From: Candidatus Falkowbacteria bacterium
GTDB lineage: Bacteria > Patescibacteriota > Patescibacteriia > Patescibacteriales > WJLG01
Length of the DNA: 64,000 nt
Assembly (NCBI GenBank): GCA_963747695.1
Contig: CAVVFV010000008.1
Span: 139,592 to 203,591 of the forward strand
Direction of reading: 5' to 3'
Position numbers and translations under genes: made by a program. Shown in pieces: positions 6,404 through 47,293 of this stretch (positions are counted from its first letter, which is position 1; every line of letters begins with the position of its first letter). Below the pieces are notes generated by a model. The model saw only the letters and a program-made list of their open reading frames with translations. It made no database searches and was not told the origin of the DNA.

Positions 6404-6535
6404 AAACATAATTCGAAGTAACGAAATACCGAACGCCACGAACTCCGCCAAACGAGAAAGTGTTCGCGATAAGGTTCGTTGCCTGCCTGCCGGCAGGCAG
6501 GGATTCGGATATTTCGTAGCTTCGGGTTATACCCT

Positions 6536-9258: not shown

Positions 9259-11010
9259 ATGAGAAAATTTTTCTTCTCGTTAATTTTAGTTGGGTTAGTC
9301 GCTGCCAGCGCGCTTTTGGCGACTCCGGCTTTTTCCGCTTCCGGAGGCTCGTTTTATCTTTCCCCATCCACCGGTACGGAATTTTTGAACAGTAAATTTA
9401 CCGTCGCCATCGATTTGAGTACAGGCGGTCAAAGCATCAATGCCGGCCAGGCATCGCTGACCTATGATAAATCTTTGCTTAAAGTTTTGAGCATCTCCAA
9501 GGGCTCGGTGTTCAGTCTTTGGACGGAAGAACCGACTTTTTCAGCGGGAGCCGGCACGATCGATTTTGGCGGCGGCGTGCCGCGTCCCGGCTATAGCGGC
9601 AACGGCGGTACGGTTTGCGTCATCACCTTTCAAGCCATCAAGTTGGGAACGGCGGCGGTGAATTTCACTTCCGGCGATCTTTTGGCCAACGACGGCCTGG
9701 GCACGAATATTTTGTCCAGCATGGGCTCAGCCAGTTTCAATATTACTCCCAAAGTAACGGCGCCGACGCCAGCGCCGACTCCGAATCAACCCGCTCCCAC
9801 GCCGACCCCAGCGCCGGTGGAAACCGCCGCCTATAACCGTCCGGTGATAACTTCCGCTACTCATCCCGATCAGACTAAATGGTATAAGGTCAAGACGGCT
9901 GATTTTGCCTGGAATTTGCCCGATGGGGCCACCGGCGTCAGCGTTGCCTTTGATCAAAAATCCGACACTGAACCGGGTAATGTTTCCGACGGTTTGTTCA
10001 ATAGTAAAGAATACACGGTCAATAATGACGGCAGCTGGTATATTCACGTCAAAGTCAAAGATAACCAGGGCCATTGGGGCACGGCCGGCCATTTCCGGGT
10101 GAACGTCGATTCCACCCCGCCGGCTGATTTCACCTTATCCGTGAAGCAAGAAGACCCTAATGATTGGCCGACGCTTAATTTCCAAACGACTGATGCTTTA
10201 TCCGGTTTGGACAGATATGAGATTTTGATCGACAGCTTGTCGGCGGCGCCGATCGTTTTGACGGCCGATAAAACTTCCTATAAATTGACCGATTTGGCGG
10301 TCGGTTCGCATACGGTGGCGGTCAAGGCGATCGATCTGGCCGGTAATGAAACGATGGCCAATCTGACTTTCGAATTCAACGCGGTAGCCACGCCGGTGAT
10401 TAAAAATTATTCCGCGGAATTAAAATCAAGCGACAAGTTCTTCATCAGCGGCACAGCCAATCCTTCTAATACGATCAATGTCTATATCCAGGGAGAAGGC
10501 CAGGCTCAGCCGGATCTTAGCAGCGTAAAAAGCGACGCTGACGGAAATTGGTTTTCGGTCGCGGCCAAGAATTACTCCAATGGCCAATATACCGCCTGGG
10601 TGGAAGCGGTGAATCCTAACGGTTTGAAGAGCAAACAGAGCACCAAGGTCAGCTTCCTGGTTACGGCGCCGATCTTCGCCCGGATCGGTTCATTCGTCTT
10701 GAATTATTTCACCGTGATCGTCTCGCTGCTCTTCATCATCGTTTTGATCGTTGCGTTGTTGATCTGGATCTGGGAATTCGTCCGCAAAAGATTAAAGAAA
10801 GAGACTTTAGAAATTGAAGACGTCCTGGAAAAAAATATCGAAGAATTGAAGATCGCCGTCTCTGAAGAGATCGATGATCTCTGCAAGATGAATCGCTCCG
10901 AATTCACCCGCGGCAAGGGCCGAGTGAAAGATATCTTGTATGAGCATATCGACGAAACCAACAAAAGGATCCTGAAGGAAATCAAGGACGTGGAGAAAAT
11001 TTTGAAATAA
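9259..11010 (+). CDS. cohesin-like domain protein, Pro/Thr linker, C-terminal TM and coiled-coil tail
   Basis: 583 aa with SD aaggag 6 nt upstream and a signal peptide ..PAFSA. GSFYLSPSTG..FTVAIDLSTGGQSINAGQASLTYDKSLLKVLSISKGSVFSLWTEEPTFSAGAGTIDFGGG, then a TPAPTPNQPAPTPTPAP linker and a TM near residue 480. Confidence 0.7.
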   Translation: MRKFFFSLILVGLVAASALLATPAFSASGGSFYLSPSTGTEFLNSKFTVAIDLSTGGQSINAGQASLTYDKSLLKVLSISKGSVFSLWTEEPTFSAGAGTIDFGGGVPRPGYSGNGGTVCVITFQAIKLGTAAVNFTSGDLLANDGLGTNILSSMGSASFNITPKVTAPTPAPTPNQPAPTPTPAPVETAAYNRPVITSATHPDQTKWYKVKTADFAWNLPDGATGVSVAFDQKSDTEPGNVSDGLFNSKEYTVNNDGSWYIHVKVKDNQGHWGTAGHFRVNVDSTPPADFTLSVKQEDPNDWPTLNFQTTDALSGLDRYEILIDSLSAAPIVLTADKTSYKLTDLAVGSHTVAVKAIDLAGNETMANLTFEFNAVATPVIKNYSAELKSSDKFFISGTANPSNTINVYIQGEGQAQPDLSSVKSDADGNWFSVAAKNYSNGQYTAWVEAVNPNGLKSKQSTKVSFLVTAPIFARIGSFVLNYFTVIVSLLFIIVLIVALLIWIWEFVRKRLKKETLEIEDVLEKNIEELKIAVSEEIDDLCKMNRSEFTRGKGRVKDILYEHIDETNKRILKEIKDVEKILK

Positions 11011-11023
11011 TAGTTTTTATAAA

Positions 11024-11049
11024 AAAATCACCTTTCATCGGGTGATTTT
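11024..11049 (+). terminator. rho-independent terminator
   Basis: aaatcacc-tttcatcg-ggtgattt followed by a T run, just after the stop at 11010. Confidence 0.6.
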
Positions 11050-11127
11050 TGTTTGGCAGAATAATGGTGATTAGGTACTTAGTCGATTAGGTGCTTAGAG
11101 TATCTTTGATTCTGTTTATGCAAATTT

Positions 11128-11184
11128 GTCCCCTCCTTGGGAGGGGTGCCGATCCCGCCAAGGCGGGAGAGGCGGGGTGGGTCT
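11128..11184. repeat. GC-rich double mini-hairpin element
   Basis: cccctcc-ttg-ggagggg (11130..11146) and tcccgcc-aa-ggcggga (11153..11168), followed by gaggcggggtgggt. A closely similar string occurs inside copA at 53746..53789. Confidence 0.7.
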
Positions 11185-11194
11185 ATTCCTGACA

Positions 11195-11440
11195 ATATTT
11201 TGCAATTTTTTTCTAAAAAAAGTTGCACATCCCGCAAAAATGACGGGACAAGAAAAATCGCGTGCAGGCCTTATTTCCTATCACTCCGCTATCCCGCCGA
11301 GGCGGGACTAGCAAAATCGCTATACTCGTCGGCGCGGCGCCTCCTGCCTACAACGCGATTTTGCACGGTTTCCCTGTCCCGCCAGCGGCGGTGATACGCT
11401 GCGTGATTACGGAAATTTTCCAATGCGCGCTACAAGGATC
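11195..11440. repeat. conserved non-coding element, copy 1 (candidate structured RNA)
   Basis: Shares blocks with 17458..17655 (tttcctatcactccgct, ctcgtcggcgcggcgcctcct, tttgcacggtttc, acgctgcgtgattacggaaattttccaatgcgcgc). Indels between copies break every reading frame. Confidence 0.6.
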
Positions 11441-11531
11441 ATTTTTTTTAAAAGTAAAAAATAAAAACCGCCTTTTTAAAAAGGTGATTTTTTAGTTTCC
11501 TAAGCACCTAATTGACTAATTTCCCAATTGC

Positions 11532-12335: not shown

Positions 12336-13025
12336 ATGCCTTATCGATATTCATTGCTGATATTATTGGCGTTTTCATCTTTTCTTCTTACGGCCTGCTC
12401 GACTGACAATCAACCGCCGGCGCGAAAAGTGCCTGAAGTATTGCTGGGGACTGATTGCGGTTTTGACAAGCTGAAGTGCTGTTCGACCACGCCGATTTGC
12501 AGTTACGGACAGCAATGTTGCATCGATCCGAATAACTCAACCGAGAATTATTGCGATGATAACTGCAATTGCGGCAATAATGAAGAATTTTGCTGTGCCG
12601 GTAATCAATGCAATGGCAATAATGTCTGCGTGGACGGTCTTTGCGCGGCTTGTGGTGATAAGGACCAGGTTTGCTGTACGACCGGCGCGGGCTGTTCAGC
12701 CGGATTAGTTTGTCAGAATAATAAATGCGCCGAATGCGGAATCAATGGCGGCCCCTGTTGCCCCGGATCGAGCTGCTTGCCTAAAACCGGGCAAATGGCC
12801 GAATGTTTGAATAATATTTGCGCTAACTGCGGTTTCGACGGTAATCCATCTTGTACGACCGGCGATAAATGCTTGCCCGGACAGCTGCTGACCGGAAAAA
12901 TCTGCCAACGTTGCGGCGGAAGCAACCAACCTTGCTGTGATTCTTCTTCCGGTACCGGTTATGATTGTGATCCCGCCGTGGCGGGATTGAAATGCGAACT
13001 GGGATTCTGCGCGGCAGGAAATTAG
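12336..13025 (+). CDS. Cys-rich repeat lipoprotein
   Basis: 229 aa with lipobox LLTAC. At least four tandem modules built around CxxCG..(P/V)CC: CAACGDKDQVCC, CAECGINGGPCC, CANCGFDGNPSC, CQRCGGSNQPCC. Confidence 0.65.
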   Translation: MPYRYSLLILLAFSSFLLTACSTDNQPPARKVPEVLLGTDCGFDKLKCCSTTPICSYGQQCCIDPNNSTENYCDDNCNCGNNEEFCCAGNQCNGNNVCVDGLCAACGDKDQVCCTTGAGCSAGLVCQNNKCAECGINGGPCCPGSSCLPKTGQMAECLNNICANCGFDGNPSCTTGDKCLPGQLLTGKICQRCGGSNQPCCDSSSGTGYDCDPAVAGLKCELGFCAAGN

Positions 13026-13183
13026 TTGATTAGTTAATTAGTCAATTAGTTGTCTTGTTTTAACAATTTGATAATTTAATTTCCTCAACTAAGTACCTAA
13101 TTAACTAATCAACTAATTCCAATTTTTTCTTGAACAAAGCCAAAAAAAATGTTAAAATATTCGAATAGAGATAAGTTTGAAAT

Positions 13184-14776
13184 ATGAATATTGTCATCGA
13201 TTTAACGCCATTTTTGAATTTTTTCAGCCAATCGCCGGATGTCATCGCCGCCCAGCTGCTTTTTTATTTTGGCTGGATTCCGATTGCCATCACCTTCCTC
13301 TGGGGATCGTTCAAGCTTTGGATTTTTTTTCGCCAGAACCAGTACGCGGCCAAGAACGGCAAATATACCCTCTTGGCCATTGATATACCCCGCGGCAACG
13401 AGCAATCGCCCCGGGCCGTGGAAAATTTATTCGCTTATCTGGCCGGAGCGCACGCCTCCATCAATCTGATCGAGCAATATTACGAGGGAAAATTTCAGAT
13501 GGGATTTTCTTTTGAGATCATCAGTACCGGCGGCTATACCCAATTCTTGATCCGGACGCCCATTCCCCAGCGCGATCTGGTCGAATCCGCCATTTACGCG
13601 CAATATCCGGACGCGGAAATAACCGAAGTTGACGATTACGTCACGCCTTTCAATAATGTCCGATTCCCTAATGATAAATATGAGATTATGGGGGCCGAGT
13701 TCATTCTGTCCCAGCCCAGGGCTTATCCGATCAAGACTTACGAAGAATTTGAACATCAGATGGGAGAGCCGGAAACTCATTTTAAGGATCCGATGGCCGC
13801 TTTGATGGACCTCTGTTCCAGCCTGCTGCCCGGGGAAAATCTTTGGTATCAGATGATCATCATTCCGATCGGTTTTGATTGGATGGAGGAACTGGATCTG
13901 GAAGTCAGCAAGATCTTGGGCGAAAAACCGAAATTCAAGAAAAACATTTTGCATTATGGCGCCGATGCCGCCTTGGGGATGATCTCGGCGGCAGGGAGCG
14001 CGGTGATGGGGCCGACCGAGGCTGTAGAAAAAAAAGTGGAGAAGAAAGATGATGTGCTGAAGATGATGCAGCTGAAACCCAAACAGAAAAAAAGAGTCGA
14101 GGGCATCGAGAAAAAATCCGGTAAAATCGCTTTTCATTTTAAGATCAGGGTAGTTTATCTGGCGGAAAAAGAAATTTTTAACAAAGCCAAAGTTTTTGGC
14201 GGTTTTGTCGGATTTATGAAGCAGTTCGCGGCGTTGGATTCCAATAATTTGAAACCGGATATGGATAAAACCGCGACCACGGCCAACTATTTGTTTCGGA
14301 AGAGCAATCTGAATCGCAAAAAGAATAATATTTTAAAATATTATATCAAGCGCGACGCGACCGCCGGCCGGAAACGCGGCCTGATGAATATCGAAGAACT
14401 GGCGACGATTTGGCATTTTCCGAATATGGGTACGGTTAAGGCGCCGCTGATTCAAATGGCGCCGGGCCGCAAAGCCGAACCGCCGATGACGCTGCCGCAA
14501 GCGGACGAAAGAGTCAGCGAAGAAAAAGCCGAGCCGTTGTTTCTGGGAGAACTGCAGGAAGAAACCGGTGCGGCAATCGGGTCCGCTCCAGCTGCACCTA
14601 ACCCGGAAAAATCAGCCGCTGCCCCGGAAGAACCGGATTTCACCAAGGCTTCTCCCTCTGTCCCGCCCAGCGGGACTGCGGCGGACAAGCCGGCTGACAA
14701 GCCCGAACCGTTTGCCGATGAAGAGCCAACTGATGAAAACCGGGGAGGGCCGCCGGAAAACCTGCCTTTCGTCTAA
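13184..14776 (+). CDS. hypothetical membrane protein (partner of downstream ATPase)
   Basis: 530 aa with an N-terminal TM pair (LLFYFGWIPIAITFLWGSFKLWIFF), a long soluble region and a Pro/Ala/Glu-rich low-complexity tail. Confidence 0.6.
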   Translation: MNIVIDLTPFLNFFSQSPDVIAAQLLFYFGWIPIAITFLWGSFKLWIFFRQNQYAAKNGKYTLLAIDIPRGNEQSPRAVENLFAYLAGAHASINLIEQYYEGKFQMGFSFEIISTGGYTQFLIRTPIPQRDLVESAIYAQYPDAEITEVDDYVTPFNNVRFPNDKYEIMGAEFILSQPRAYPIKTYEEFEHQMGEPETHFKDPMAALMDLCSSLLPGENLWYQMIIIPIGFDWMEELDLEVSKILGEKPKFKKNILHYGADAALGMISAAGSAVMGPTEAVEKKVEKKDDVLKMMQLKPKQKKRVEGIEKKSGKIAFHFKIRVVYLAEKEIFNKAKVFGGFVGFMKQFAALDSNNLKPDMDKTATTANYLFRKSNLNRKKNNILKYYIKRDATAGRKRGLMNIEELATIWHFPNMGTVKAPLIQMAPGRKAEPPMTLPQADERVSEEKAEPLFLGELQEETGAAIGSAPAAPNPEKSAAAPEEPDFTKASPSVPPSGTAADKPADKPEPFADEEPTDENRGGPPENLPFV

Positions 14777-14857: not shown

Positions 14858-16633
14858 ATGATTAACAGCGAGATAACTACATTTGCTGAGACCACCTTTC
14901 GTAACAGAAAGATCAAGTTCGGCATCAAAACCGACGACCGCCGCCGTCATATGTATTTGATCGGTAAAACCGGCATGGGCAAGTCGACGATTTTGGAAAA
15001 TATGATCGTGGCCGATATCCGCGCCGGGAAAGGCGTGGCGGTGGTCGATCCGCACGGCGATCTGGCCGAAAAAGTGATGCAATATATTCCCACCGAGCGG
15101 ATCAAAGATATCATTTATTTCAATCCGACGGATACGGAATTCCCCATCGCTTTTAATATCGTGGAAGCGGTAGATATCAAAGTACGGCACTTGGTCGCGT
15201 CCGGATTAGTCGGAGTCTTCAAAAAGCTTTGGGCTGATTCCTGGGGGCCAAGATTGGAATATATTTTACGTAACGCGATTTTGGCGGTTTTGGATTATCC
15301 CAATTCCACTTTGCTTTCGGTAATCCAAATGCTCTCCGACAAAGCTTATCGCAAAAAAGTCATGGCCGAGGTCAAGGATCCGGTGGTCAAATCTTTTTGG
15401 TTGAAAGAATTCGCCAGCTATGCCGACAAATTCGCCTCCGAGGCGGTCTCACCGATCCAGAATAAAGTCGGCCAATTTTTGTCGAGCTCGCTGATCCGCA
15501 ATATCGTCGGCCAGACCCGGTCTTCGATCGATGTCCGCGCGGCGATGGACCAGGGAAAAATTTTGATCTTGAATTTGTCCAAGGGCCATATCGGCGAAGA
15601 TAATTCGGCGCTTTTGGGCGCGATGATGATCACCAAGATCCAGCTGGCGGCGATGAGCCGGGTCGATATTCCCGAAAAAGAAAGAAAAGATTTTTATCTT
15701 TACATCGATGAGTTTCAGAATTTTTCGACCGAATCATTTGCGACGATCCTTTCCGAAGCGCGGAAATACCGGTTGAATCTGATCATCGCCCACCAATATA
15801 TGGAGCAGCTGACCGACGAAGTCAAGGCGGCCGTGTTCGGTAACGTCGGCACCCTGGTCGCTTTTCGCGTCGGCGCCGTTGATGCTGAGGAGTTGGTCAA
15901 GGAATTTACGCCAATCTTCGAGGAAGAAGACATTCTTAATTTGCCCAAGTACGAATTTTATATCAAATTAATGATTGATGGCGTGGCCTCATCGCCTTTT
16001 TCCGCGCGCGGGTTGCCGCCTTTGTCCGATGAAGAGCGAACTAATAATTTGCAGAAGGCGATTGACTGGACGCGGCAGACGTATGCTAAACCGCAGAAGG
16101 AAGTGGAAGAAGAGATTATGAGGATTCATTTTGCCGAAGAACCGGCTAAGCCGCCGGTAACCCCGGGGAGGGAAATCAAGTCGGCAGCGGATATTCCCCG
16201 GCCAAGTCCGGTATTGCCGAAAGCCGAACCCCGGGCCAAGCCGAAAGCGGGCGGAATTTTGTTTGATGCCAAATGCGCTTCTTGCGGCAGTCCGACCAAA
16301 GTTCCTTTTAAACCCGATCCGAGTCGGCCGGTTTATTGTAAGAATTGCTTATCCGAATTAAAAAAGAAAAAGCGCGATGGCGTCGTCGATCGTCCCGTCA
16401 AGAAAGACCGGATTGATCTTTCCCGAATTTCTCCTTCGACGCTGCTGGCGCGGGGAGCGGTGTCTACCGGGGCGAATGAGGAAGGTTACGTTTCGCTGGC
16501 CAAGCTGAAAGAAACCGGCCTGTCCAATTTTGCCCGAAAACCTAAAGTTGAAAATAATCCTCCGCCAGCGGTTGAAGCGTCGAAGAATCCGGAAAAAGAT
16601 CTGGCCGAAGGCGAGGATATAATATTCGAATAG
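14858..16633 (+). CDS. P-loop ATPase of the TraD/VirD4/HerA-like kind with C-terminal zinc ribbon
   Basis: Walker A LIGKTGMGKST and Walker B FYLYIDEFQNF. C-terminal CASCGSPTKVPFKPDPSRPVYCKNC. Confidence 0.7.
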   Translation: MINSEITTFAETTFRNRKIKFGIKTDDRRRHMYLIGKTGMGKSTILENMIVADIRAGKGVAVVDPHGDLAEKVMQYIPTERIKDIIYFNPTDTEFPIAFNIVEAVDIKVRHLVASGLVGVFKKLWADSWGPRLEYILRNAILAVLDYPNSTLLSVIQMLSDKAYRKKVMAEVKDPVVKSFWLKEFASYADKFASEAVSPIQNKVGQFLSSSLIRNIVGQTRSSIDVRAAMDQGKILILNLSKGHIGEDNSALLGAMMITKIQLAAMSRVDIPEKERKDFYLYIDEFQNFSTESFATILSEARKYRLNLIIAHQYMEQLTDEVKAAVFGNVGTLVAFRVGAVDAEELVKEFTPIFEEEDILNLPKYEFYIKLMIDGVASSPFSARGLPPLSDEERTNNLQKAIDWTRQTYAKPQKEVEEEIMRIHFAEEPAKPPVTPGREIKSAADIPRPSPVLPKAEPRAKPKAGGILFDAKCASCGSPTKVPFKPDPSRPVYCKNCLSELKKKKRDGVVDRPVKKDRIDLSRISPSTLLARGAVSTGANEEGYVSLAKLKETGLSNFARKPKVENNPPPAVEASKNPEKDLAEGEDIIFE

Positions 16634-16792
16634 TTAATTAGTTAATTAGGTACTTAGTTTTCTTATAATTTGATTTATCATAGTAAATTAGCGTAATCTT
16701 ACTGGAAAATGTTTTTTAATTAATTTGATAATAAATAGTAGAACATTCTAATCTCTAGTCAACTAATTAACCAATCAACTAATCGACTAACT

Positions 16793-17452
16793 ATGAGTTT
16801 TACTCATTTTTTTAGTATCAAGAATATCGTGGATACTTTCGCTTTATTTTACGTCAACGATTATCCTTTTTTGATGATGGTTTGGAATTTATTTTTGGCT
16901 TTGATACCTTTCGGATTGTTTTTGCTATTTTCTTCCTATTGGCAAAAAACCAAATTTAAAAAAAGCGGCCAAAAAATTTGGGCCGTAATAATTTTTTTGT
17001 TTTGGTTTATCTTTTTGCCCAATGCCGCTTATCTGGTGGTGGGCAACCGCCATCTGCTGAATTTCTGCCCGGCCGACTCGCCGAACAGCGTTTGCGTCCC
17101 GGGAACCTGGCAGATAATGTTCTTTTTTGTCTATAGCGTTTTAGGCTGGGTGCTGTTCACTATTTATTTAGTCCAGATGCGGGAACTGTTGGCGAAGATT
17201 TTCAACCCTAAAATATCGCGCAATTTGATCTATATTTTTATCCCCTTTGTCGCTTGGGCGGTGCTTTTGGGTTTGATCGAGCGTTACAACAGTTGGGATA
17301 TCTTTATCAATCCCTTGGCAATTTCGGCTAATCTGCTAAGCTATTTTACTGATTGGGATTATTTCCGCAATTGGCTGGTTTTCACCGCCGGCTACTATAT
17401 ATTATACATTTGGGGAGAACTGTTGTTTAGAAAAAAAATCAAGAATGGTTAA
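16793..17452 (+). CDS. polytopic membrane protein, DUF1361-like
   Basis: 219 aa with 5-6 TM. ERYNSWDIFINP resembles the conserved R-x-NSWD motif of DUF1361, from memory only. Confidence 0.55.
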   Translation: MSFTHFFSIKNIVDTFALFYVNDYPFLMMVWNLFLALIPFGLFLLFSSYWQKTKFKKSGQKIWAVIIFLFWFIFLPNAAYLVVGNRHLLNFCPADSPNSVCVPGTWQIMFFFVYSVLGWVLFTIYLVQMRELLAKIFNPKISRNLIYIFIPFVAWAVLLGLIERYNSWDIFINPLAISANLLSYFTDWDYFRNWLVFTAGYYILYIWGELLFRKKIKNG

Positions 17453-17457: not shown

Positions 17458-17655
17458 CAATATTTAAATATCTTTGCCACTTTTTTTAGAAAAAAGTGGC
17501 GGAAAAAATCGCGCGCTGGACAAATTTCCTATCACTCCGCTAAGAAACCTAGCAAATTTCGAACTCGTCGGCGCGGCGCCTCCTCAGACAACGAAATTTG
17601 CACGGTTTCAACGCTGCGTGATTACGGAAATTTTCCAATGCGCGCAATAAGGAAA
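17458..17655. repeat. conserved non-coding element, copy 2 (candidate structured RNA)
   Basis: Paralogue of 11195..11440 that lacks the GC mini-hairpins of copy 1. Stems gccacttttttt/aaaaaagtggc (17476..17500) and gcaaatttcg/cgaaatttgc (17552..17561 / 17592..17601). Confidence 0.6.
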
Positions 17656-17747
17656 ACAATTTATAACCGAGACGAAATTTAAAAATTTTACAAAAAAAAG
17701 AGTTTGACGTCGGCCAAACTAATTAACTAATCAACTAATCAACCAAA

Positions 17748-19325
17748 ATGGATTATTTAAAGATCGGCAAGGCGACCGAATTGACCGGCGGCGACCGGAT
17801 ATTTTATCGGATCCTGGAAATTTTTCCGGGAGCTTTTGCTTGGGGAACTTTGCTTATCTTAATTGTTTTTTCTTATTTCAAACCGGTCTGGGTGGCATAT
17901 TTCATCATTGCTTTTGACGTCTATTGGCTGTTACTCGTCCTTTACTTGGGCATAATGCTCGTCACCTCCTATTTTAAAATGAAGCAGATGCGCCGGATCG
18001 ATTGGCGTAAAAAATGTGAAGAATTATCGGTAAAAACCGCCGCCAAGCTGCCCGATGATTGTCTGGTCAAAGCCGGGTTTACTTATCGGGATATCATCCA
18101 TTTGGTGATAGCGCCGACGTTGAACGAGCCGGTGGAAGTTTTGCGGGCCAGCATCCAGTCGATCGATAATGACGGGTTCCCCCGCGAAAATATCATTTTT
18201 GTCTTGGCAATCGAGGAGCGTGAAGGACAGCGAGGCTTGGATAAGGCGGCGATCTTGAAAAAAGAGTTCGACGGCAAGTTCCGGAATTTTGTCGTTACCG
18301 TTCATCCCGATATCGAAGGAGAGCTGAAAGGGAAGGGCGCTAATCAGGCTTGGGGAGCGCGAAAAGTCAGAGAAGAAGTGATCGACAAGGAAAAGATTCC
18401 TTATAATAAAATTCTCGTCAGCGTTTTTGATAGCGACACGGTCGTTTATCCCGGATTTTTCTTTTGCCTCTCTTATTATTTTTTGACCGTCACCAAGCCT
18501 TATCGCGTCAGCTATCAGCCGGTTCCGCTTTATCACAATAATGTCTGGGAAGTCCCGTTCTTTTCCCGGGTTGCCGCCTCCAGCAATACTTTTTGGCAGA
18601 TGATGCAGCAGATCCGGCCGGACAAATTGGCCACTTATTCCTCTCATTCGATGAGCTGGCAGTCTTTGGTGGATATCGGTTTTTGGTCGACCACCATGGC
18701 TTCGGAGGATTCCCGCATCTATTGGCATTGTTATTTCCATTACAACGGCGATTATCGCGCTGAGCCGATCTTTTTTCCGATCTCGATGGATTCGGTGATG
18801 GTTCAAGACAATTGGAACACGATGAAGAGCCTGTATAAACAGCAGCGCCGCTGGGGTTGGGGAGTGGAAAATATCCCTTATCTGATCTTCAATACGGTCA
18901 AGCGCTGGAAAGTTTTGCCCAAGCGCGATGCGCTGGATAAAATCTTCACTCAAGTCTACGGTTTTCATTCTTGGGCGACCAACGCTCTGATCATCGGCGT
19001 GATCGGCTGGCTGCCGCTTTTTTTCGGCGGCGATACTTTCAGCGGCATGGTCATTTCGGGAAATTTGCCGAGCGTCACCCAGACTTTAATGACGTTATCG
19101 ATGATCGGTTTGTTGATTTCGGCGGTCGTTTCTTCGCTTTTGATGCCTCGCCGGCCGATCGGCGTCAGCCGGCTTAAAAGAGTGATGATCGTTTTTGAAT
19201 GGCTGCTTTTGCCGATCGGCATTATTTTCTTCGGCGCCTTTCCCGCGCTGGACGCGCAAACCCGGCTAATGTTTGGTAAATATATGGGGTTCTGGGTAAC
19301 GCCCAAAATCCGCAAGGAACAATAA
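17748..19325 (+). CDS. membrane-embedded family-2 glycosyltransferase (processive, cellulose/chitin-synthase-like)
   Basis: 525 aa with flanking TM helices, the DxD-type motif VFDSDTV and the Q-x-x-RW motif QQRRWGWG. Confidence 0.8.
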   Translation: MDYLKIGKATELTGGDRIFYRILEIFPGAFAWGTLLILIVFSYFKPVWVAYFIIAFDVYWLLLVLYLGIMLVTSYFKMKQMRRIDWRKKCEELSVKTAAKLPDDCLVKAGFTYRDIIHLVIAPTLNEPVEVLRASIQSIDNDGFPRENIIFVLAIEEREGQRGLDKAAILKKEFDGKFRNFVVTVHPDIEGELKGKGANQAWGARKVREEVIDKEKIPYNKILVSVFDSDTVVYPGFFFCLSYYFLTVTKPYRVSYQPVPLYHNNVWEVPFFSRVAASSNTFWQMMQQIRPDKLATYSSHSMSWQSLVDIGFWSTTMASEDSRIYWHCYFHYNGDYRAEPIFFPISMDSVMVQDNWNTMKSLYKQQRRWGWGVENIPYLIFNTVKRWKVLPKRDALDKIFTQVYGFHSWATNALIIGVIGWLPLFFGGDTFSGMVISGNLPSVTQTLMTLSMIGLLISAVVSSLLMPRRPIGVSRLKRVMIVFEWLLLPIGIIFFGAFPALDAQTRLMFGKYMGFWVTPKIRKEQ

Positions 19326-22054: not shown

Positions 22055-22741
22055 TTGAAGATGATAAAATTATTTAATGTCTACAAGTCGTATATCAACG
22101 ACGTCCAGGTTTTAAAGGACGTGAATTTGCATATCAAGCCGGGGGAATTCGTTTCAATCGTCGGACAATCCGGTTCGGGCAAAACGACTTTGGTGAAAGC
22201 GATGATCGGCGAAGAAAAAATAAATGAAGGAAAGATTATTATCGGCGGTTGGGACATCACCGACATCGGTGGTCGCGAAGTCCCTTATTTGCGCCGCCAG
22301 ATCGGCGTTATTTTTCAGGATTTCAAATTGCTGCCTAAAAAGACTTTATTCGAGAACGTGGCTTTTGCCCTGGAAGTCTGCGGTCAACCTTCCAAAAGAA
22401 TCAAAGATATCATTCCCCGAGTGATGAAGATCGTCGGTTTGGAAGATAAGATGCATCGGTATCCGCATGAAGTTTCCGGCGGCGAAAAACAGCGCGCCGC
22501 CATCGCCCGCGCTCTGGTGCACAGCCCGAAAGTCCTCCTGGCCGATGAGCCGACCGGAAATCTGGATGCGATCAATGCCGGCGAGATCACCGACCTGCTT
22601 TTGCATATCAATAAATTCGGCACGACGATCGTGCTGGTCAGCCATAATAAGGAAATCGTCAATCGTCTCAATAAAAGAGTGATCACGATTGATAACGGCT
22701 GCATCGTTTCCGACCGGGAGAAGGGGAAGTATTTGTTATAG
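22055..22741 (+). CDS. ftsE: cell-division ABC ATPase FtsE
   Basis: 228 aa with Walker A GQSGSGKTT, signature SGGEKQR and Walker B LLADEP. Directly upstream of the FtsX-like gene. Confidence 0.85.
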   Translation: MKMIKLFNVYKSYINDVQVLKDVNLHIKPGEFVSIVGQSGSGKTTLVKAMIGEEKINEGKIIIGGWDITDIGGREVPYLRRQIGVIFQDFKLLPKKTLFENVAFALEVCGQPSKRIKDIIPRVMKIVGLEDKMHRYPHEVSGGEKQRAAIARALVHSPKVLLADEPTGNLDAINAGEITDLLLHINKFGTTIVLVSHNKEIVNRLNKRVITIDNGCIVSDREKGKYLL

Positions 22742-22815
22742 ATTGTTATATTGTCATATTGCTATATTGTTACGCGCTGAAAAAAATTAATTTTAACAAT
22801 ATAACAATATAGCAA
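22742..22815. repeat. caatata/tattg-family intergenic palindrome, copy 1
   Basis: Arms are attgttatattgtcatattgctatattgttacgc and ttaacaatataacaatatagcaat. Copies at 48567..48652 and 51836..51918. Confidence 0.75.
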
Positions 22816-22827
22816 TAAATTATCATT

Positions 22828-24274: not shown

Positions 24275-24409
24275 ATCAACCCCCTTCGGTTAAATGTTTT
24301 CAATGAAAAAGATCAGCTTTAGTTATTATCATATTATTATATTTAAGTCAATCTTTAAGGTGATGGTCTTTGTTTGAGAATATTTTCGGCCCCCACTTAT
24401 AATATAGAT

Positions 24410-24973
24410 ATGAAAAGAACGGTCTTGAAAGAATTTTTTTTTCAGCGCCCGACGCTGATGGTTGCCCATGATCTGCTGGGAAAATTTTTGGTGAGAAATA
24501 TCGGCCGCCAGGAAATAGCGGTGATGATTACTGAAGTCGAAGCTTATGACGGGCCGCGCGATAAAGCGTCGCACGCGTCCCGGGGGATGACGCTCCGCAA
24601 TTCGATTATGTTCGGCGTTGGCGGATATTTTTACATTTATCTTTGTTATGGCATGTACGAGATGCTCAACATCGTTACCGGTCCCCAAAATTATCCGGCC
24701 GCGATCCTGATCCGCGGCGCATCTTCCCTTCTTTCCAAGGAAGGGTCGGGGGGTGGTTTGAACGGTCCCGGCAAACTCACCAAGTTTTTAAAGATCAATC
24801 GTCGTTTCAATAAAAAATTAGCGAATAAAGCGACCGGCCTTTGGTTTGAAGACCGCGGCGTAAAAATTACCGGCAAAATGATCAAGCGCACACCCCGCAT
24901 CGGAGTCGCCTACGCCGGTCCGATCTGGTCCAGGAAAAAATACCGTTTCCTTTTGACAAATACCGAAGAATAG
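24410..24973 (+). CDS. DNA-3-methyladenine glycosylase (MPG/AAG family)
   Basis: MKRTVLKEFF..VAHDLLGKFL..ITEVEAYDGPRDKASHASRGMTLRNSIMFGVGGYFYIYLCYGMYEMLNIV. TATAAT at 24398..24403 lies 6 nt before this ATG, so the mRNA may be leaderless. The ORF track starts earlier, at TTG 24374. Confidence 0.8.
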   Translation: MKRTVLKEFFFQRPTLMVAHDLLGKFLVRNIGRQEIAVMITEVEAYDGPRDKASHASRGMTLRNSIMFGVGGYFYIYLCYGMYEMLNIVTGPQNYPAAILIRGASSLLSKEGSGGGLNGPGKLTKFLKINRRFNKKLANKATGLWFEDRGVKITGKMIKRTPRIGVAYAGPIWSRKKYRFLLTNTEE

Positions 24974-25069: not shown

Positions 25070-25191
25070 TCGGGGATCGTCCAACGGCCTGCCCAAGGCG
25101 GGCGCGTAGGACAGCAGCCTTTGGAGCTGTTAATCATGGTTCGCCCCAGCCATTCGGCGGGGCGCCAGGGGTTCATCCCCTGGCGAATCCA
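25070..25191 (+). pseudogene. tRNA-Gln-like 5' fragment carrying two GC-hairpin insertions
   Basis: Identical to tRNA-Gln positions 1 to about 58, except for a 19-nt insert in the D loop (25088..25106) and a 42-nt insert in the T loop (25144..25185). Homology stops at aatcca, and the 3' T-stem and acceptor strand are missing. Confidence 0.6.
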
Positions 25192-25204: not shown

Positions 25205-25275
25205 TCGGGGATCGTCCAACGGTAGGACAGCAGCCTTTGGAGCTGTTAATCATGGTTCGAATCCATGTCCCCGAA
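25205..25275 (+). tRNA. tRNA-Gln (anticodon UUG)
   Basis: 71-nt cloverleaf: TCGGGGA/TCCCCGA acceptor, GTCC/GGAC D stem, GCAGC-CTTTGGA-GCTGT anticodon arm, CATGG-TTCGAAT-CCATG T arm. Its 3' end forms the left junction of the island. Confidence 0.85.
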
Positions 25276-26741
25276 CACAGAAAATACTAAGCCCTTTTTC
25301 AGGCAAAATTTTTAACGCTTCGCGAAGCGAAGCGTAAGGTTTGATGGGCACAAATTTAAGTTTTTGATTTATCAAAAACAAGTTCGAGCCGAAGATTTTT
25401 TGGAGATGTGCCTTTTTGGCACATAGATCGTCATTGGTTGCTGTTTTAGCAAGCAATGACGCATCTTTTATCCATTCCCGCATCGGTTCGAGCCAAGTTC
25501 CGGCGTTCTGTTCTAAGCGGGCTATTTGCTCCTCGAGCGACCTCTTTTGCGAGATGACGGCCTTCCGACGGTTTAGGTAGTCTTCCCGCTCGATATCTTG
25601 GGCCAGATAGAGGTCGGTGAGCCGCTCGAGGTTGCGGGATAGGCCTTGTGTCTTCTCCCGCAAGTCCTGGACGAATACCGCCGTTTTCTGCCCTAATTCT
25701 ATCTCTTCCTCATTTGTCCTCCTCGTGAGTTCATTAGCTATATTTTCCGGCATTGAAAATTCAGATAATAGATTTGATAGCTCGGAAACTAAAATCTCTT
25801 CTCTAACATACGATTGAGAACATTTGACTGTTGTTGATTTTTTGGTACAGCGGTAATAGGTATGAGATTTTTGGACTTCAGCGGTAATCATTTTTCCGCA
25901 CTCGCCGCAATGCAATAGACCGCATAAGGGTTTGGGGTCGTTTCCGGTTCTCTGCGGATGACCTCTATCAATCAAAACATTTTGGACTTTATCCCATAAC
26001 CGCTTCTCAATGAGCGGTTTATGCTTGCCCTCATAGATATCGCCGTTATATCTAAATACGCCGTAATAGAAAGGATTGGAGAGAATAAACTTAGCTCTGT
26101 CCTTGTGTAGCGGTTTATCGCCCGCGCTTTTAACACCTTGCTTAAAAAGAAAGTTGGAAATATCCTCGAGGCGATAATTACCTTTGGAGTAGAGCTCAAA
26201 GGCGGCTCGGATGATTTTTGATTTTCTTCGGTCAACGATAATCGTTTTAGCCCGCACGTCGTTTAAGATAGCCTGTCGGAGCTGTGCCGGGAAAGTGTCC
26301 CAGTCGCGCCTTCTGTCTAAGCCCGCGGCTCGTGTTGGAGCTTAGGTCGCGGATGAACTGATTGGCCATACCTAATTCAACGGCCATCAACAGGACGTTA
26401 TCGTTAGGTCGATAGCTTTTGTCCGGCATCAGGATATGTTCAATGATGCTCTGCTGGATCATCCAGCTTATTTGTCCGCCGTCCACCGGATTGCGCGCCA
26501 GACGGTCAAGCTTCCAGCAGACAATCCCCTTGGCTTCGCCCTTGTTAATCCGTTTAAGCATCTCGTTAAAAACCGGTCGGCCCGGAGCTTTGGCCGATTG
26601 TTTTTCTACGAATTCGCGGATTATCTCGATATGTTCGGCCTTGGCCAGTTGGCGCAGTTCGACGAGCTGGGCTTCAATGGACAAAACCTGTTTGTCCTCG
26701 ACATCAGTTGATTTGCGGGCGTAGAGGAAATAGTTTGGCAT
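25250..26741 (-). pseudogene. large serine recombinase, split by a frameshift near 26247..26257
   Basis: The N-terminal resolvase domain (MPNYFLYARKSTDVEDKQVLSIEAQ.., 26741..26247) ends ..PTGYLKRRAG*. The overlapping frame continues (V)RAKTIIVDRRKSKIIRAAFELY.. with the recombinase domain, the zinc ribbon CGECG..YYRC and a coiled coil. The last 26 nt overlap the antisense of tRNA-Gln. Confidence 0.75.
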
Positions 26742-26755
26742 AGTATTTAGCTTAG

Positions 26756-26771
26756 TGGCGTTATAACGCCA
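26756..26771. promoter_or_regulatory. 16-bp perfect palindrome in divergent promoter region (candidate operator)
   Basis: tggcgtta|taacgcca lies between the recombinase start (26741, minus) and the HTH gene start (26817, plus). Confidence 0.4.
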
Positions 26772-26816
26772 TATAGAATAATAATAACACAATTGATAGG
26801 ATATACAATAACAACT

Positions 26817-27020
26817 ATGGATATTTCAAAAAAATTCGGCAAAGCAGTTAGAGCGGCACGCCTTGAAAAAGGAATGTCTCAGGGAGATTTGGCGTTAAAA
26901 TTAAAGGTTGACGCTTCTTATATTAGTAAGATAGAGCGAGGCATACAAAATATGTCACTTGAAGGTGTGGAAAAAATAGCCAAAGCATTGAGTGTGCCAA
27001 TAGTAGAATTAATTAAATGA
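26817..27020 (+). CDS. XRE-family HTH protein resembling R-M controller (C) proteins
   Basis: MDISKKFGKAVRAARLEKGMSQGDLALKLKVDASYISKIERGIQNMSLEGVEKIAKALSVPIVELIK. Its stop overlaps the next start (ATGA). The ORF track starts 8 codons earlier. Confidence 0.8.
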   Translation: MDISKKFGKAVRAARLEKGMSQGDLALKLKVDASYISKIERGIQNMSLEGVEKIAKALSVPIVELIK

Positions 27021-28417
27021 TTATGGACGACGAAAATTTTATAAAAATAAGTCAGCTTACTATTAGTAATTCTTATAATCAGAATTACAAACCATTTATA
27101 AAAACATTAATATTGACCCGCTTACCTTTTTTGAAAAGGAACGAGCTTTTTATGCGCGGGATACAGATAGGGATGCTCGATAGTTTGTCAAAAATGCAGG
27201 ATAACTTAAGAGAATTTAATTCAAAACTATCTTCTTCACTTTCAGCGCTTGAAACGAAAAATCTAGAAAAAAATATTCTTATTCAAAATGAATGGATAAG
27301 AACTATACAAACCATAGCAGACGGGATAGCTTGGCGTAGCTTTAATTTTGATAGACCAATTTTGCGCCACTTATCTGATAATAAATCTCCGGGGCATATA
27401 TCCCAACTTGGACAAGGATTTGATTATCTAGAAACTTTAAAGAAATTTTTAAGAACTTTCAATGGATTCCCGATCGTTAATGATCTAACACGTATTCTTC
27501 GTATCGGAGACTTTACTGTTTTTTATCCTCAAAATAAACAGATGATTTATGAGATAAAAGAAAAAGGAAAAAAGATTTTTAATGTCGGACAGATTTTCTA
27601 CGAGATTAAACGAAGCAAAAAAATACCAAATCCGCAGAAATGGAGGCAACTTACCGCACAGATGTCTATCATAGAAAGAAAGGTTAGGCTCATAACAAAA
27701 AAAGATGGTTCTGTCCAGGATAATTTTGAAGTAGATATTGTGGATTTAAAATTCCCCATAAAAAATCACTTTCGCAAACTAAAAAAACTAATAAGGGTTG
27801 CTGATAGGGAAGGAATAGCCGCTATGACGGTTGAGGATGGGTATTTTATACAAGTTGTTGCCGTGGATAAAATGAAGAATGAGAAAATTGCCCAACATGT
27901 TTCCGCAAAGTTTAAAACAAATTATCCTAAGTGGGTAAAAAACAATCCAAACATTTTTTCTCTAACGAATTATGATAGCTTTTATCAAGAAGGGGGAGAG
28001 TTTACTAGAAATATTATTCCATATTCTGTTTTACCTTTATCAGCACGAAACTGCGTTCGTTTAATGATGGGGCATCTTTGGATAACGGTAATCATTGATA
28101 CGTCTATAATAAAGAAAAAGCTATTAAAACTTAATTGGAAAGTTTCTGAAGGAGAAATTCCCGATCAGCTCCCAGCGGGGGCAACGTTAAAACAAAAAGT
28201 GGATAGTGAAAAATTTTTTGAGATAAAAAAGGACGATGAAAATGGCACATTTACCAGCAATCTGACTATAAGCGAGATAATGATTGCTTTATCGTCATTC
28301 TATAGTTTTGATTTTCTGATAGATTCGTTGGAATTCTCTTATCATGAAGCAAGGCGAACAAAAAGGTCTGGGTATGTAACGAAAAATTATCTCGGTGAAC
28401 AAAAATTGTTAATTTAG
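27017..28417 (+). CDS. hypothetical 466-aa protein, possible PD-(D/E)xK-type nuclease
   Basis: Translationally coupled to the HTH gene. The only motif seen is RIGDFTVFYPQNKQMIYEIKEKG (D-x13-E-x-K). No P-loop, no TM. Confidence 0.6.
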   Translation: MIMDDENFIKISQLTISNSYNQNYKPFIKTLILTRLPFLKRNELFMRGIQIGMLDSLSKMQDNLREFNSKLSSSLSALETKNLEKNILIQNEWIRTIQTIADGIAWRSFNFDRPILRHLSDNKSPGHISQLGQGFDYLETLKKFLRTFNGFPIVNDLTRILRIGDFTVFYPQNKQMIYEIKEKGKKIFNVGQIFYEIKRSKKIPNPQKWRQLTAQMSIIERKVRLITKKDGSVQDNFEVDIVDLKFPIKNHFRKLKKLIRVADREGIAAMTVEDGYFIQVVAVDKMKNEKIAQHVSAKFKTNYPKWVKNNPNIFSLTNYDSFYQEGGEFTRNIIPYSVLPLSARNCVRLMMGHLWITVIIDTSIIKKKLLKLNWKVSEGEIPDQLPAGATLKQKVDSEKFFEIKKDDENGTFTSNLTISEIMIALSSFYSFDFLIDSLEFSYHEARRTKRSGYVTKNYLGEQKLLI

Positions 28418-28430
28418 CAAGTCTAGAAGT

Positions 28431-29001
28431 CATCTCCAAAAAATCTTCGGCTCGAACTTGTTTTTGATAAATCAAAAACTTAAATTTGTGCCCATCAAAC
28501 CTTACGCTTCGCTTCGCGAAGCGTTAAAAATTTTGCCTGAAAAAGGGCTTAGTATTTTCTGTGCTCATCTCTATGACCTCGCTCGAGGATATTTTTTAGA
28601 GAATTCCTGACCCAAAATATAGCCGTCTAACTGCCGCCAGCTAGCGGCCATTTTCCCGTTTTACGCTCAAAGCAAGGGGGCCAACTAGGTGAACAGCTAT
28701 ATGAACAGCTGTATGAACGACTAGTTGAACCCGGGTTCAACTAGCAGACACCGATTTAAGCAGTTATCCTAGCCAAATTCTATTTTCAAAAATGAGTGAC
28801 TATTACTCCGACAACGGAATCAACTGAACGACAAATATATATTATTACTACACTAAGACATTACGACTAAACTACAAATTATAATTACTACTTAAACCAA
28901 TTATACTAAATACAAATATTAATTACAGATATTATTTAATTTCAGATACTACTTTCCAACTACTGGCCAAAACCAAGAAAAAAATGGGGAATGAGGGGAA
29001 A
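28431..29001. repeat. 571-bp inverted-repeat copy (X' + tg core + B') containing an attP-type junction
   Basis: 28431..28561 is the exact reverse complement of 25278..25408. 28564..29001 is the reverse complement of 37089..37526: the outer ~300 bp are identical and the inner ~140 bp carry scattered mismatches and one small indel. Confidence 0.85.
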
Positions 29002-29175
29002 GCCCATCGCCCCGACATAGGTCGGGGCGAGATTGATGGCCCAGGAAACGAAGAGTGTAATAGATACAATCGAACCAGCGACTATTTAAGTAAAAGGCTC
29101 CGACAAAGGGGGTGCCTTTTACTTTGACATTGAAAGAAAATTGTGGTAATATGCGACAATAATAAAGAATAATGT

Positions 29176-30000: not shown

Positions 30001-30006
30001 ACGAGT

Positions 30007-30474: not shown

Positions 30475-30502
30475 TGCTGATATTGCATTTATTACGGTTA
30501 TG

Positions 30503-30536
30503 AAAACTCCTTTTTTAAAGAAAGGAGTTTTTTTTA
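30503..30536 (+). terminator. rho-independent terminator
   Basis: aaaactccttt-ttttaaag-aaaggagtttttttt. It separates the 2-gene cassette from the mod operon. Confidence 0.65.
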
Positions 30537-30628
30537 ATCAATAATATTTATAAATAATTATGTAATTTTCGCTTGATTTTTGGTTTTAAAAGTGGTAAAC
30601 TTGAAATTCAATTATAAATATAAAAAAT

Positions 30629-33000: not shown

Positions 33001-33114
33001 AAAACTTTTTTTAGCCTGATACTTGTCTGCGGTTTTATGTATTTAACCGCGGGAGAACTAGGTCCTCACAAATATCATTGTTATTATTATAACACATTTT
33101 TTTTAAAAATCAAT

Positions 33115-36033: not shown

Positions 36034-36096
36034 CGACTAATGGCTCATATCCCTAATTACGGGAGATAAAATGTCACGGGTTTTAGTAACCAATAT

Positions 36097-37792: not shown

Positions 37793-37829
37793 TTGGGAAC
37801 AAAATGAATTTGTTCAACGATCTGGTAAA

Positions 37830-47172: not shown

Positions 47173-47293
47173 AACATGATGCTGCAAATTTTTCGCGAAT
47201 ACCTGCCTGCCGGCGGGCAGGCTGCGAACTATTTAACTAATTATTCGTTTCTGCTTACTACTAGTAGTATTCGCATTATCTATACAAACCTTT

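Follow-up and report, generated by a model that had tools for sequence, protein, structure and literature searches.

The stretch of Candidatus Falkowbacteria DNA analysed here (GenBank contig CAVVFV010000008.1, positions 139,592 to 203,591; 64,000 nucleotides, hereafter the window) carries small GC-rich hairpins in spacers, in a truncated tRNA-Gln copy, in a repeated rod-like non-coding element and in protein genes. With a probability of roughly two in three (0.68), these hairpins are several families of miniature palindromic repeats, selfish or neutral, in a genome of the Patescibacteria (candidate phyla radiation, CPR), and of the kind represented by the repetitive extragenic palindromes (REPs) and bacterial interspersed mosaic elements (BIMEs), the Rickettsia palindromic elements (RPEs) and the cyanobacterial small dispersed repeats (SDRs). 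Comparison of related genomes indicates that whole units turn up as copies at new places and disappear again. A first-pass annotation had described the hairpins as one family of GC-rich palindromes, gained and lost as units, residing in frame in a gene as RPEs do, with no transposase nearby. All hairpins that it listed are present at their positions and this core reading is supported; the repeats are real, but they form several REP-like families, not one.

The hairpins share a plan of a C-rich arm, a loop of 2-8 nt and a G-rich arm, in elements of 16-57 nt with stems of 5-9 bp. The surrounding DNA had been called AT-rich, which holds only moderately at a window GC content of ~46%. The CopA and methylpurine-DNA glycosylase (MPG) proteins of the window have nearest relatives annotated as Patescibacteria. 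Compared with shuffled sequence, CCCCTC-N2-8-GAGGGG is found twice in the window where 0.01 is expected, CCGCC-N2-12-GGCGG ten times where 1.2 are expected (a count reached by 0/100 shuffles), and CTGCC..GGCAG palindromes at two loci where 0.22 are expected. A scan for CT-arm hairpins, with a weak control that gave 3.3 matches in shuffles, was set aside as evidence.

The family designated F1 is a composite element of 40-57 nt with the plan ATT-CCCCTCC-NNN-GGAGGGG-T-GCC-GA-(variable hairpin)-GA-GGC-GGGGTGGGTT. Hairpin 1 (CCCCTCC/GGAGGGG) is almost invariant, hairpin 2 is closed by GCC/GGC with adjoining tandem G-A and has a variable interior, and the tail is G-rich. The window contains three F1 copies, one of which has a hairpin of family F3 nested within it:

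11127-11184, plus strand: F1 composite, with hairpin 1 CCCCTCC-ttg-GGAGGGG at 11130-11146, a T, hairpin 2 GCC-GA..GA-GGC and the tail GGGGTGGGT.
11153-11168: nested F3 hairpin TCCCGCCAAGGCGGGA, in the hairpin-2 loop of the F1 copy 11127-11184.
24722-24760, plus strand: diverged F1-like element, in frame in the MPG gene 24374-24973, with CCCTTC-tttccaag-GAAGGG, the tail CGGGGGGTGGTTT and the peptide SSLLSKEGSGGGL.
53743-53790, plus strand: standard F1 of 48 nt, in frame in copA, with 65.7 bits against the covariance model R1.

R1 was built from a seed of 41 distinct F1 copies and used with a match threshold of E <= 0.001; the copy at 11127-11184 matches it with 54.5 bits (E ~1e-12) and has a DNA fold of -16.6 kcal/mol. 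The hairpins at 11130-11146 and 11153-11168 had been reported as separate units. Their coordinates stand, but they are parts of one composite element with a nested hairpin and a tail. The near-identity noted between 11130-11152 and 53746-53768 amounts to 21/23 bases, with both mismatches in the 3-base loop, and the two copies share the end GGCGGGGTGGGT.

Outside the window, F1 was sought with the exact 20-base core CCCCTCC-NNN-GGAGGGGTGCCGA in one genome per GTDB species (185,579 species, ~596 Gb). The core occurs at 63 loci in at least ten phyla, with ~1 expected by arithmetic. The phyla include Bacteroidota, Verrucomicrobiota, Acidobacteriota, Patescibacteria, Proteobacteria and Firmicutes, and the hosts comprise Flavobacterium, Chryseobacterium, Salinimicrobium, Balneolaceae, Ignavibacteria, Verrucomicrobiota, Kiritimatiellota and Aminicenantes/Acidobacteriota, as well as Francisella, Facilibium, Rickettsiales, termite-gut Alphaproteobacteria, Oscillospiraceae and Patescibacteria. 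The same continuation, consisting of hairpin 1, T, GCC-GA, a variable interior, GA-GGC and GGGGTGGG, is shared by 62 of the 68 core instances, and the flanks of these tailed instances are also alike, with T at -1 in 62/62, A at -3 in 49/62 and T at +1 in 51/62. The six instances without the tail, mostly in genomes of 64-70% GC, are probably chance matches. Genomes of isolates carry F1 (Flavobacterium, Chryseobacterium, Salinimicrobium, Facilibium), and so do independent assemblies from NCBI, JGI and ENA.

The covariance search that had been proposed for the hairpin classes yields, with R1, 129 F1 copies in the 548 kb examined, about half of which were not seeds; the notion that the instances are no more alike than random hairpins is thereby contradicted for F1. 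Syntenic Patescibacteria DNA, chosen without regard to F1, has ~1 copy per 9 kb. Arrays of alternating strand are found in loci L048, L021, L058 and L060, each with 4-9 R1 matches within ~1 kb; the window has no such clusters. In the R1 alignment, which was fitted to the model so that its pairing figures lean toward structure, pairing covers 98% of the cells. Covariation (GC, CG, AU and UA) is seen at the inner pairs of hairpin 2, while in hairpin 1 the last pair alone switches, from C-G to U-A, 16 times. Distant variants of hairpin 1 are still paired (CCCTCT/AGAGGG, CCCTTC/GAAGGG and CCTCTCC/GGAGAGG). With gene contexts taken from mechanical open reading frames (ORFs), 44 of 66 cross-phylum copies are intergenic, many of them 4-60 nt past an ORF end, and both orientations relative to the upstream gene are seen. 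F1 also lies in frame in essential genes of relatives, those for LeuRS, RecG and the polymerase III delta subunit (holA).

A G-quadruplex reading of the F1 tail was set aside; with hairpin 1 folded, only three G3+ tracts are free. In several termite-gut proteobacterial and other loci (L058, L060, L041, L035, L013), the tail pairs with a downstream AACCCTCCCC, and a typical CGTC-type REP, CGTC-AATTTTGC..GCAAAATT-GAC, follows downstream of this pairing, so that F1 is part of larger mosaic repeats in those loci. The layout of L058 resembles a REPtron; the ORF between its inverted F1 copies encodes a ferredoxin-type protein and not a REP-associated tyrosine transposase (RAYT).

Sites with and without F1 were compared in syntenic relatives obtained via exact protein look-ups (L064-L066 for the copA region; L067-L070 for the ftsEX-MPG-tRNA-Gln region), which have ~75% DNA identity to the window. 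Filled and empty sites are both seen among them, in agreement with the earlier claim of gain and loss as units. The hairpin reported at 53746-53789 does lie inside copA, in frame in the ORF 53017-55365 on the minus strand; consequently the copA mRNA carries the reverse complement of the F1 copy 53743-53790. This copy is nearly identical to copies in the Patescibacteria metagenome-assembled genome (MAG) STD1_31 and is located within an insert of ~56 residues in the nucleotide-binding domain, relative to Archaeoglobus fulgidus CopA (3j09). At the corresponding loop, L064 has another F1 variant with extra sequence, the CTCCGCC-CAA-GGCGGAG hairpin of L065 is unrelated, and L066 is empty; in a protein alignment, distant CopA homologues lack the whole ~56-residue insert. 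A further in-frame insert in CopA is missing in L064 and L065:

55130-55162, minus strand: GC-rich insert of ~30-33 nt in the CopA linker after the metal-binding domain, in frame, with the hairpin GCTCCG-CCG-CGGAGC at 55136-55150.

In the MPG gene, L068 and L069 contain F1 variants at site A, which the window, L067 and L070 leave empty, and site B contains a different variant in each genome, as a tandem pair in L068, and nothing in the outgroup proteins. The ftsE-ftsX spacer contains F1 in L067, L068 (in tandem) and L069, each time with a different second hairpin, and AT-rich octamer-repeat palindromes in the window and L070. The reading frame is open through every intragenic copy, which points to translation of these copies.

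The cleanest presence/absence cases at the level of single units are the tRNA-Gln relics, in which all three insertion sites are loops. In the window the relic and its insertions are:

25070-25191, plus strand: truncated 5' tRNA-Gln copy, host of two insertions, ending in the 3' strand of the T stem and lying directly upstream of the intact gene 25205-25276.
25088-25106, plus strand: 19-nt hairpin CCTGCCCAAGGCGGGCGCG in the D loop of the relic.
25144-25185, plus strand: 42-nt double hairpin in the T loop of the relic, CCCCAGCC-ATTC-GGCGGGG followed by CGCCAGGGG-TTCAT-CCCCTGGCG.

Apart from these two insertions, the relic is identical to the intact gene, and both prove to be clean insertions in the D and T loops, where the first-pass annotation had placed them. 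The double hairpin has a fold of -18.7 kcal/mol (z -5.0), and its first hairpin, CCCCAGCC-ATTC-GGCGGGG, recurs in L070. The D-loop hairpin is found at the same site, with one base different, in copy a of L068; copy b of L068, the relic of L070 and the intact tRNA-Gln genes all lack it. L068 contains arrays of tRNA-Gln 5' fragments, in which adjacent copies are otherwise identical and differ by the D-loop hairpin alone, and all of which have a third hairpin, in the anticodon loop. The orthologous relic in L070 shares the breakpoint and first T-loop hairpin of the window copy and has another interior in the second hairpin and an empty D loop.

Small GIY-YIG nuclease ORFs (81-85 residues in L068 and L070) are flanked either by hairpin repeats or by a truncated, hairpin-bearing 5' tRNA fragment on one side and the intact tRNA on the other. 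The host of these cassettes is tRNA-Gln in L070 and L068 and tRNA-Glu in L006. The window relic has the same breakpoint as L070 and has lost the GIY-YIG ORF. These arrangements suggest a tRNA-targeting, homing-type GIY-YIG cassette in the clade. The regions concerned are:

L070, 4554-4989: GIY-YIG ORF region.
L068, 4619-5160: GIY-YIG ORF region.
L006, 2530-2950: GIY-YIG ORF region.
L053, 400-1000: GIY-YIG ORF region.
L041, 3380-3800: GIY-YIG ORF region.

A second group of insertions is found in a paralogous non-coding element, present in the window at 11260-11431 and 17511-17645. Both copies form a long rod, an inverted repeat of ~135-170 nt (z -4.9 and -4.5). A fragment of the element occurs in a relative (L065 7115-7149), and no Rfam family fits it; it looks like a palindromic repeat of the RPE or MITE (miniature inverted-repeat transposable element) type, or a structured RNA. 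Alignment of the two copies confirms that two hairpins are present in copy 1 and not in copy 2, as had been noted. They lie in opposite arms and are mutually paired in the predicted fold, which suggests that they may stem from arm-to-arm templated correction. These insertions and the members of the smaller families F2, F3 and F4 in the window are as follows:

6482-6501, no strand assigned: F4, perfect 20-nt palindrome with the halves CCTGCCTGCC and GGCAGGCAGG, in a spacer.
11292-11307, plus strand: F3 hairpin TCCCGCC-GA-GGCGGGA, replacing the 6-nt loop AGAAAC in the left arm of rod copy 1.
11373-11394, plus strand: 22-nt insertion CCTGTCCCGCCAGCGGCGGTGA in the right arm of rod copy 1, with the hairpin CCGCC-AGC-GGCGG at 11379-11391.
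14660-14676, plus strand: hairpin GTCCCGC-CCA-GCGGGAC, an F3-like candidate close to the 3' end of the ORF 13184-14776.
47202-47221, no strand assigned: F4 with one base changed, CCTGCCTGCCGGCGGGCAGG, in a spacer between ABC-transporter genes.
55695-55715, plus strand: F2, CTTG-TCCGCC-TTG-GGCGGA-AG, nested in the loop of the hairpin repeat GTCATTCCGA..CGAGGAATC at 55686-55732.

F2 has the form CTTG-TCCGCC..GGCGGA-AG and is found in the window at 55695-55715 and in L066 and L065. A sister copy of its host hairpin repeat, at 55466-55490, is without F2, and a 30-nt F2 in a zinc-finger gene of L066 is absent in the window. The head CTTGTCCGCC also occurs in L066 at 7428 and nested in F1 in L002 and L033; in two Verrucomicrobiota loci, the hairpin-2 slot of F1 holds a CTTGTCCGCC..GGCGGAA hairpin. 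F3, NCCCGCC-loop-GGCGGGN', occurs in the window at 11153, 11292 and 25088 and in L068 and L069. The F4 sequence CCTGCCTGCCGGCAGGCAGG has a 24/24 match in L053, nested in a hairpin repeat, and a 21-nt copy in L066, which lies in a dsbD-like gene within an AAAAGTT-type tandem tract and is absent in the window and two other relatives. The hairpin at 12971-12986 was considered as an inserted unit and rejected; it is conserved coding sequence, with homologues of the same length and a DPxxGL motif. The ORF 12336-13025 encodes a repeat protein, apparently secreted and very rich in cysteine (CG..CC motifs), that has no Pfam match and is conserved in this Patescibacteria clade only.

Insertions are often located in the loops of existing hairpins: in tRNA, in the rod (GCTA..TAGC stem), in hairpin 2 of F1 and in a leader hairpin of L069. 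The GTCATYCYGA..GGATC hairpins at 55686-55732 and in L053 also carry loop insertions, and the second-hairpin slot of F1 is filled in at least three separate ways. Other insertions lie between short tandem repeats in spacers. The first-pass annotation had proposed a check for target-site duplications or preferences; at eight precise filled/empty sites, among them the D, T and anticodon loops, both rod arms and L066 9069 and 7428, neither a duplication nor a common target motif is present. In line with the earlier remark that no transposase accompanies the hairpins, Pfam scans found none in 40 window ORFs, covering most of the long ones, or in 10 ORFs adjoining or containing F1 elsewhere; the sole recombinase is a serine recombinase in an unrelated island. 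In a scan of the whole window with Rfam, only two tRNAs reach the gathering threshold and the elements have no match. At permissive settings nothing relevant is found at 11000-11520 (E <= 10) or in ten F1-bearing loci (E <= 5), and a match to whalefall-1 was dismissed as noise (11.8 bits against a threshold of 37). A literature search with the exact motif strings returned unrelated matches only, and a keyword search returned no account of such elements in CPR bacteria.

If the hairpins are miniature mobile repeats, their spread could proceed via a folded single-stranded DNA intermediate, with a factor supplied in trans, either a hairpin-recognising enzyme of the HUH/Y1 type or a structure-specific nuclease together with repair. 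Ectopic gene conversion among copies would swap the variable interior of F1. Transcribed elements would form very stable hairpins, and of the copies that closely follow genes, some may have been recruited as 3'-end stabilisers, the primary nature of the elements being that of selfish or neutral DNA. Several points weigh against this reading. No mobilising enzyme was identified among the scanned ORFs, and the plasmid and phage collections contain no convincing F1 copies, which leaves the route between phyla unexplained. In F1 filled/empty pairs taken from ~75%-identical genomes, repeated loss or replacement at hot spots is inseparable from repeated gain. Part of the loop preference could be a matter of survival, since structured RNAs lose insertions that fall elsewhere. 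Finally, with their low complexity the simple hairpins of the CCCGCC and CCTGCC types could in part have arisen in place, and the lookalike at 12971-12986 turned out to be conserved coding sequence. A bolder version, in which F1 is an undescribed, phylum-crossing mobile element of ~40-50 nt that offers its sequence-invariant hairpin 1 as a handle to a widely conserved enzyme of the host or of mobile elements and hairpin 2 as a landing pad to smaller palindromes, spreads both horizontally and inside genomes by entering single-stranded loops without target duplication, and routinely remodels essential CPR proteins (CopA, MPG, LeuRS, RecG, polymerase III delta) and tRNA relics, possibly together with GIY-YIG nucleases, is doubtful.

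Other explanations attribute the hairpins to function or to local DNA synthesis. Selected functional signals such as terminators, 3'-end mRNA stabilisers or protein-binding sites would agree with the intergenic position of 44/66 cross-phylum F1 copies, many of them 4-60 nt after an ORF end, with the hairpin-forming element found in the ftsE-ftsX spacer of 5/5 genomes (F1 in three, AT-rich octamer palindromes in two), and with the conservation of hairpin 1 in sequence beyond structure, as for a protein-binding site; published REPs do have such roles (PMC3733652). We nevertheless regard this as unlikely for the hairpins at large. The in-frame copies in copA, MPG, LeuRS, RecG and holA and the insertions in tRNA-relic loops make no sense for a terminator, no T-run follows the hairpins, both orientations to the upstream gene occur, and orthologous sites are filled, empty or differently filled among relatives. 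Co-option of some copies is compatible with miniature mobile repeats as well. Production of the hairpins in place, by template switching in quasi-palindromes, by snap-back synthesis after a loop nick or by GC-biased repair, would account for the lack of target-site duplications at precise filled/empty pairs, for insertions that replace loop bases instead of adding to them, for the mutual complementarity of the two rod insertions, as arm-to-arm templated correction would give, and for unrelated palindromes swapped within conserved flanks (the second T-loop hairpin in the window versus L070; hairpin 2 of F1 in L067, L068 and L069). As a general explanation it is unlikely. More than 30 bases of F1 are conserved, in a fixed order, at 129 places spread over many phyla, which cannot be the work of independent invention; F4 is met as one and the same 20-24-mer in contexts that are unrelated, and the 19-nt D-loop insert is common to two genomes with one base of difference. 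Only for the small variable hairpins may such a process play a part.

A third proposal regards the hairpins as by-products or cargo of free-standing GIY-YIG nuclease genes that home into tRNA genes, F1 itself going back to a class II tRNA, namely to its acceptor and D-arm ends. In L070, L068 and L006 the GIY-YIG ORF does separate the intact tRNA from a 5' tRNA fragment with hairpins, in L053 it lies between hairpin repeats with a nested F4, and the tRNA-Gln relics of the window and L070 share their breakpoint. Moreover, the F1 sequence GGAGGGG-TG-CCGAG.. is, by eye, like the 5' end GGAGAGG-TG-GCTGAG of a tRNA-Ser of the clade (L046 3563-3650), which could hint at a tRNA-derived origin. In such a comparison, the 3' arm of F1 hairpin 1 with the start of hairpin 2 is like the 5' acceptor strand, U8 and the D arm of class II tRNAs of the clade, and the 5' arm of hairpin 1 (CCCCTCC) is like the matching 3' acceptor strand. 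Against this, the window contains no GIY-YIG gene, and one lies within 8 kb in only 3/63 loci selected for F1, so F1 is not tied to GIY-YIG; the Rfam tRNA model gives F1 no score, and F1 has no arms of the size of an anticodon or T arm. A tRNA-like fold of F1 was rejected on the misfit of the arm sizes and the missing tRNA-model score, the class II likeness being confined to the 5' 15 nt. This proposal is very unlikely for the hairpins as a whole. Chance similarity in GC-rich sequence, or assembly artefacts, can hardly be entertained. Tailless core matches do occur in very GC-rich genomes (Cupriavidus, a Chloroflexota MAG and a Deltaproteobacteria MAG) and the hairpin at 12971-12986 is plain coding sequence; the shuffle controls, the tail and flanks shared by 62/68 core matches, and the presence of the elements in isolate genomes and in independent NCBI, JGI and ENA assemblies speak against it, and for F1, F4 and the tRNA-relic inserts this reading is already refuted. 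The functional, in-place and GIY-YIG/tRNA explanations account for F1 less well than families of miniature mobile repeats do, and the latter two may contribute to the smallest hairpins and the tRNA relics.

The surroundings of the hairpins have some features of their own. Many window spacers are full of tandem 8-nt repeats of the TTGTTATA/TATAACAA, AACTAATT/AATTAGTT and CGCGAATA types, often as inverted arrays that would fold into long AT-rich hairpins:

22739-22817, 48556-48657 and 51834-51926: tandem 8-nt repeat spacers.
13017-13134, 16617-16808, 17717-17764, 46410-46472 and 57118-57167: further tandem 8-nt repeat spacers.

The copA-dsbD spacer contains a repeat of the form GAATTTTCCCCAGACCATTCTC..TTTTGTCATCCTGAG-loop-CGAAGGATC at 55422-55500, 55600-55635 (reverse), 55642-55735 and 55787-55839. 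It has 32-nt identical matches in L053, where it flanks the GIY-YIG ORF, and near-identical ones in L036, and could represent either one more hairpin family or a site that regulates the copper operon. A low-GC island (35-37% versus ~46%) is integrated at 25250-37801, where the tRNA-Gln gene has its 3' end, with copies of the tRNA 3' end at 25260-25286, 37643-37669 and 37775-37801 and a 132-nt tandem duplication at 37524-37787. It encodes a large serine recombinase in two ORFs with an 11-nt overlap on the minus strand (26247-26792 and 25250-26257) and a type III restriction-modification pair (methylase 30629-32512, Res 33037-36033).

If the elements are what we propose, REP-like selfish DNA without a transposase extends to the tiny genomes of the CPR. 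The insertions would be a source of variation in protein length, with 7-56 residues in CopA, MPG, LeuRS, RecG and polymerase III delta, and of insertions and deletions in structured-RNA genes. The F1 consensus is searchable and spans multiple phyla, which opens the movement and wide conservation of tiny palindromes to comparative genomics and biochemistry. In practice, the elements will confuse gene callers and protein alignments through spurious peptides (SPLxRGV..GRGVL, NTPRP..HPSQEGN) and may break metagenomic assemblies.

The likeness to Rickettsia RPEs seen in the first-pass annotation holds for the in-frame palindromes, while in size and nesting the elements are closer to REP/BIME sequences and cyanobacterial SDRs. 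A REP is a short GC-rich imperfect palindrome of ~14-65 nt that forms a stem-loop (PMC12306157, PMC3184786), and the window elements have this size and structure. They resemble the REP/BIME sequences of Di Nocera et al. (2013; PMC3733652), which are GC-rich palindromes of 20-40 bp that occur in many copies, often in alternating clusters. F1 has a common consensus and multiple copies (three in 64 kb; 129 in 548 kb examined) and forms alternating, BIME-like clusters in other loci, though not in the window. REPs lie mostly just downstream of genes, some wholly within ORFs, including those of repair genes and aminoacyl-tRNA synthetases, and some are inserted in other palindromes; CGTC REPs occur without a dedicated transposase in several phyla, and RPE-4 and RPE-6 are CGTC-type REPs (PMC3733652). 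As to this extragenic habit, F1 is intergenic in 44/66 cases across phyla; in the window two of its three copies, and several other hairpins, are intragenic or in RNA-gene relics. The GTAG- and CGTC-tagged REPs have an unpaired tetranucleotide tag at one end and, for CGTC (TGTC/CCTC), 8-9-bp stems starting with A/T pairs and a CCA tail. Such a tag is absent here, F1 being flanked by ATT and T(T) and F2 by CTTG, and F3 and F4 being untagged; true CGTC REPs adjoin F1 as separate units in the termite-gut proteobacterial loci. Unlike REPs, F1 combines two hairpins, the second of them hypervariable, with a G-rich tail, has a CPR host and is nearly letter-identical in at least ten phyla. With respect to the REPIN/RAYT system, no Y1 transposase was found among the 40 window ORFs and the 10 ORFs by or with F1.

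The classic RPE-1 measures 100-150 bp and is confined to Rickettsia. Rickettsia RPEs and the present elements are alike as palindromes that lie in frame in protein genes and are apparently tolerated as extra peptide; the latter differ in their size of 16-57 nt, in taxon and in the lack of any Rfam or literature match. The rod-like repeat (135-170 nt) is closer to RPEs in size, but is itself a host of hairpins. The cyanobacterial SDRs, reportedly described by Elhai and colleagues in 2008, are said to be hairpin-forming sequences of 21-27 nt, apparently mobile without a known transposase, nested, located in heptamer or octamer tracts and optional at orthologous sites. Going by this description, similar behaviour is seen here in the nesting, the optional sites, the F4 copy of L066 in an AAAAGTT-type tract and the 8-nt tandem spacers; the sequences and the host phylum are different. 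To our knowledge, SDRs have not been reported in frame in essential genes or across phyla. Yeast mitochondrial GC clusters are GC-rich palindromes of 30-50 bp that are optional among strains and occur in spacers, in rRNA genes and in frame in var1, some with short target duplications. They are likewise GC-rich palindromes in a more AT-rich genome, but they are organellar and unrelated in sequence, and no duplication is seen here. MITEs are non-autonomous, structured, multi-copy elements that are sometimes intragenic (PMC3184786). Whereas MITEs have target-site duplications and terminal inverted repeats that match a parent insertion sequence, the hairpins show no target-site duplication at any precise filled/empty pair and have no parent insertion sequence, and the ends of F1 are only loosely complementary. 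What sets the present elements apart from all these systems is the composite build of F1, with a second hairpin that resembles a cassette, the close match of its copies between many phyla, and how often it lies in frame in housekeeping genes of the CPR.

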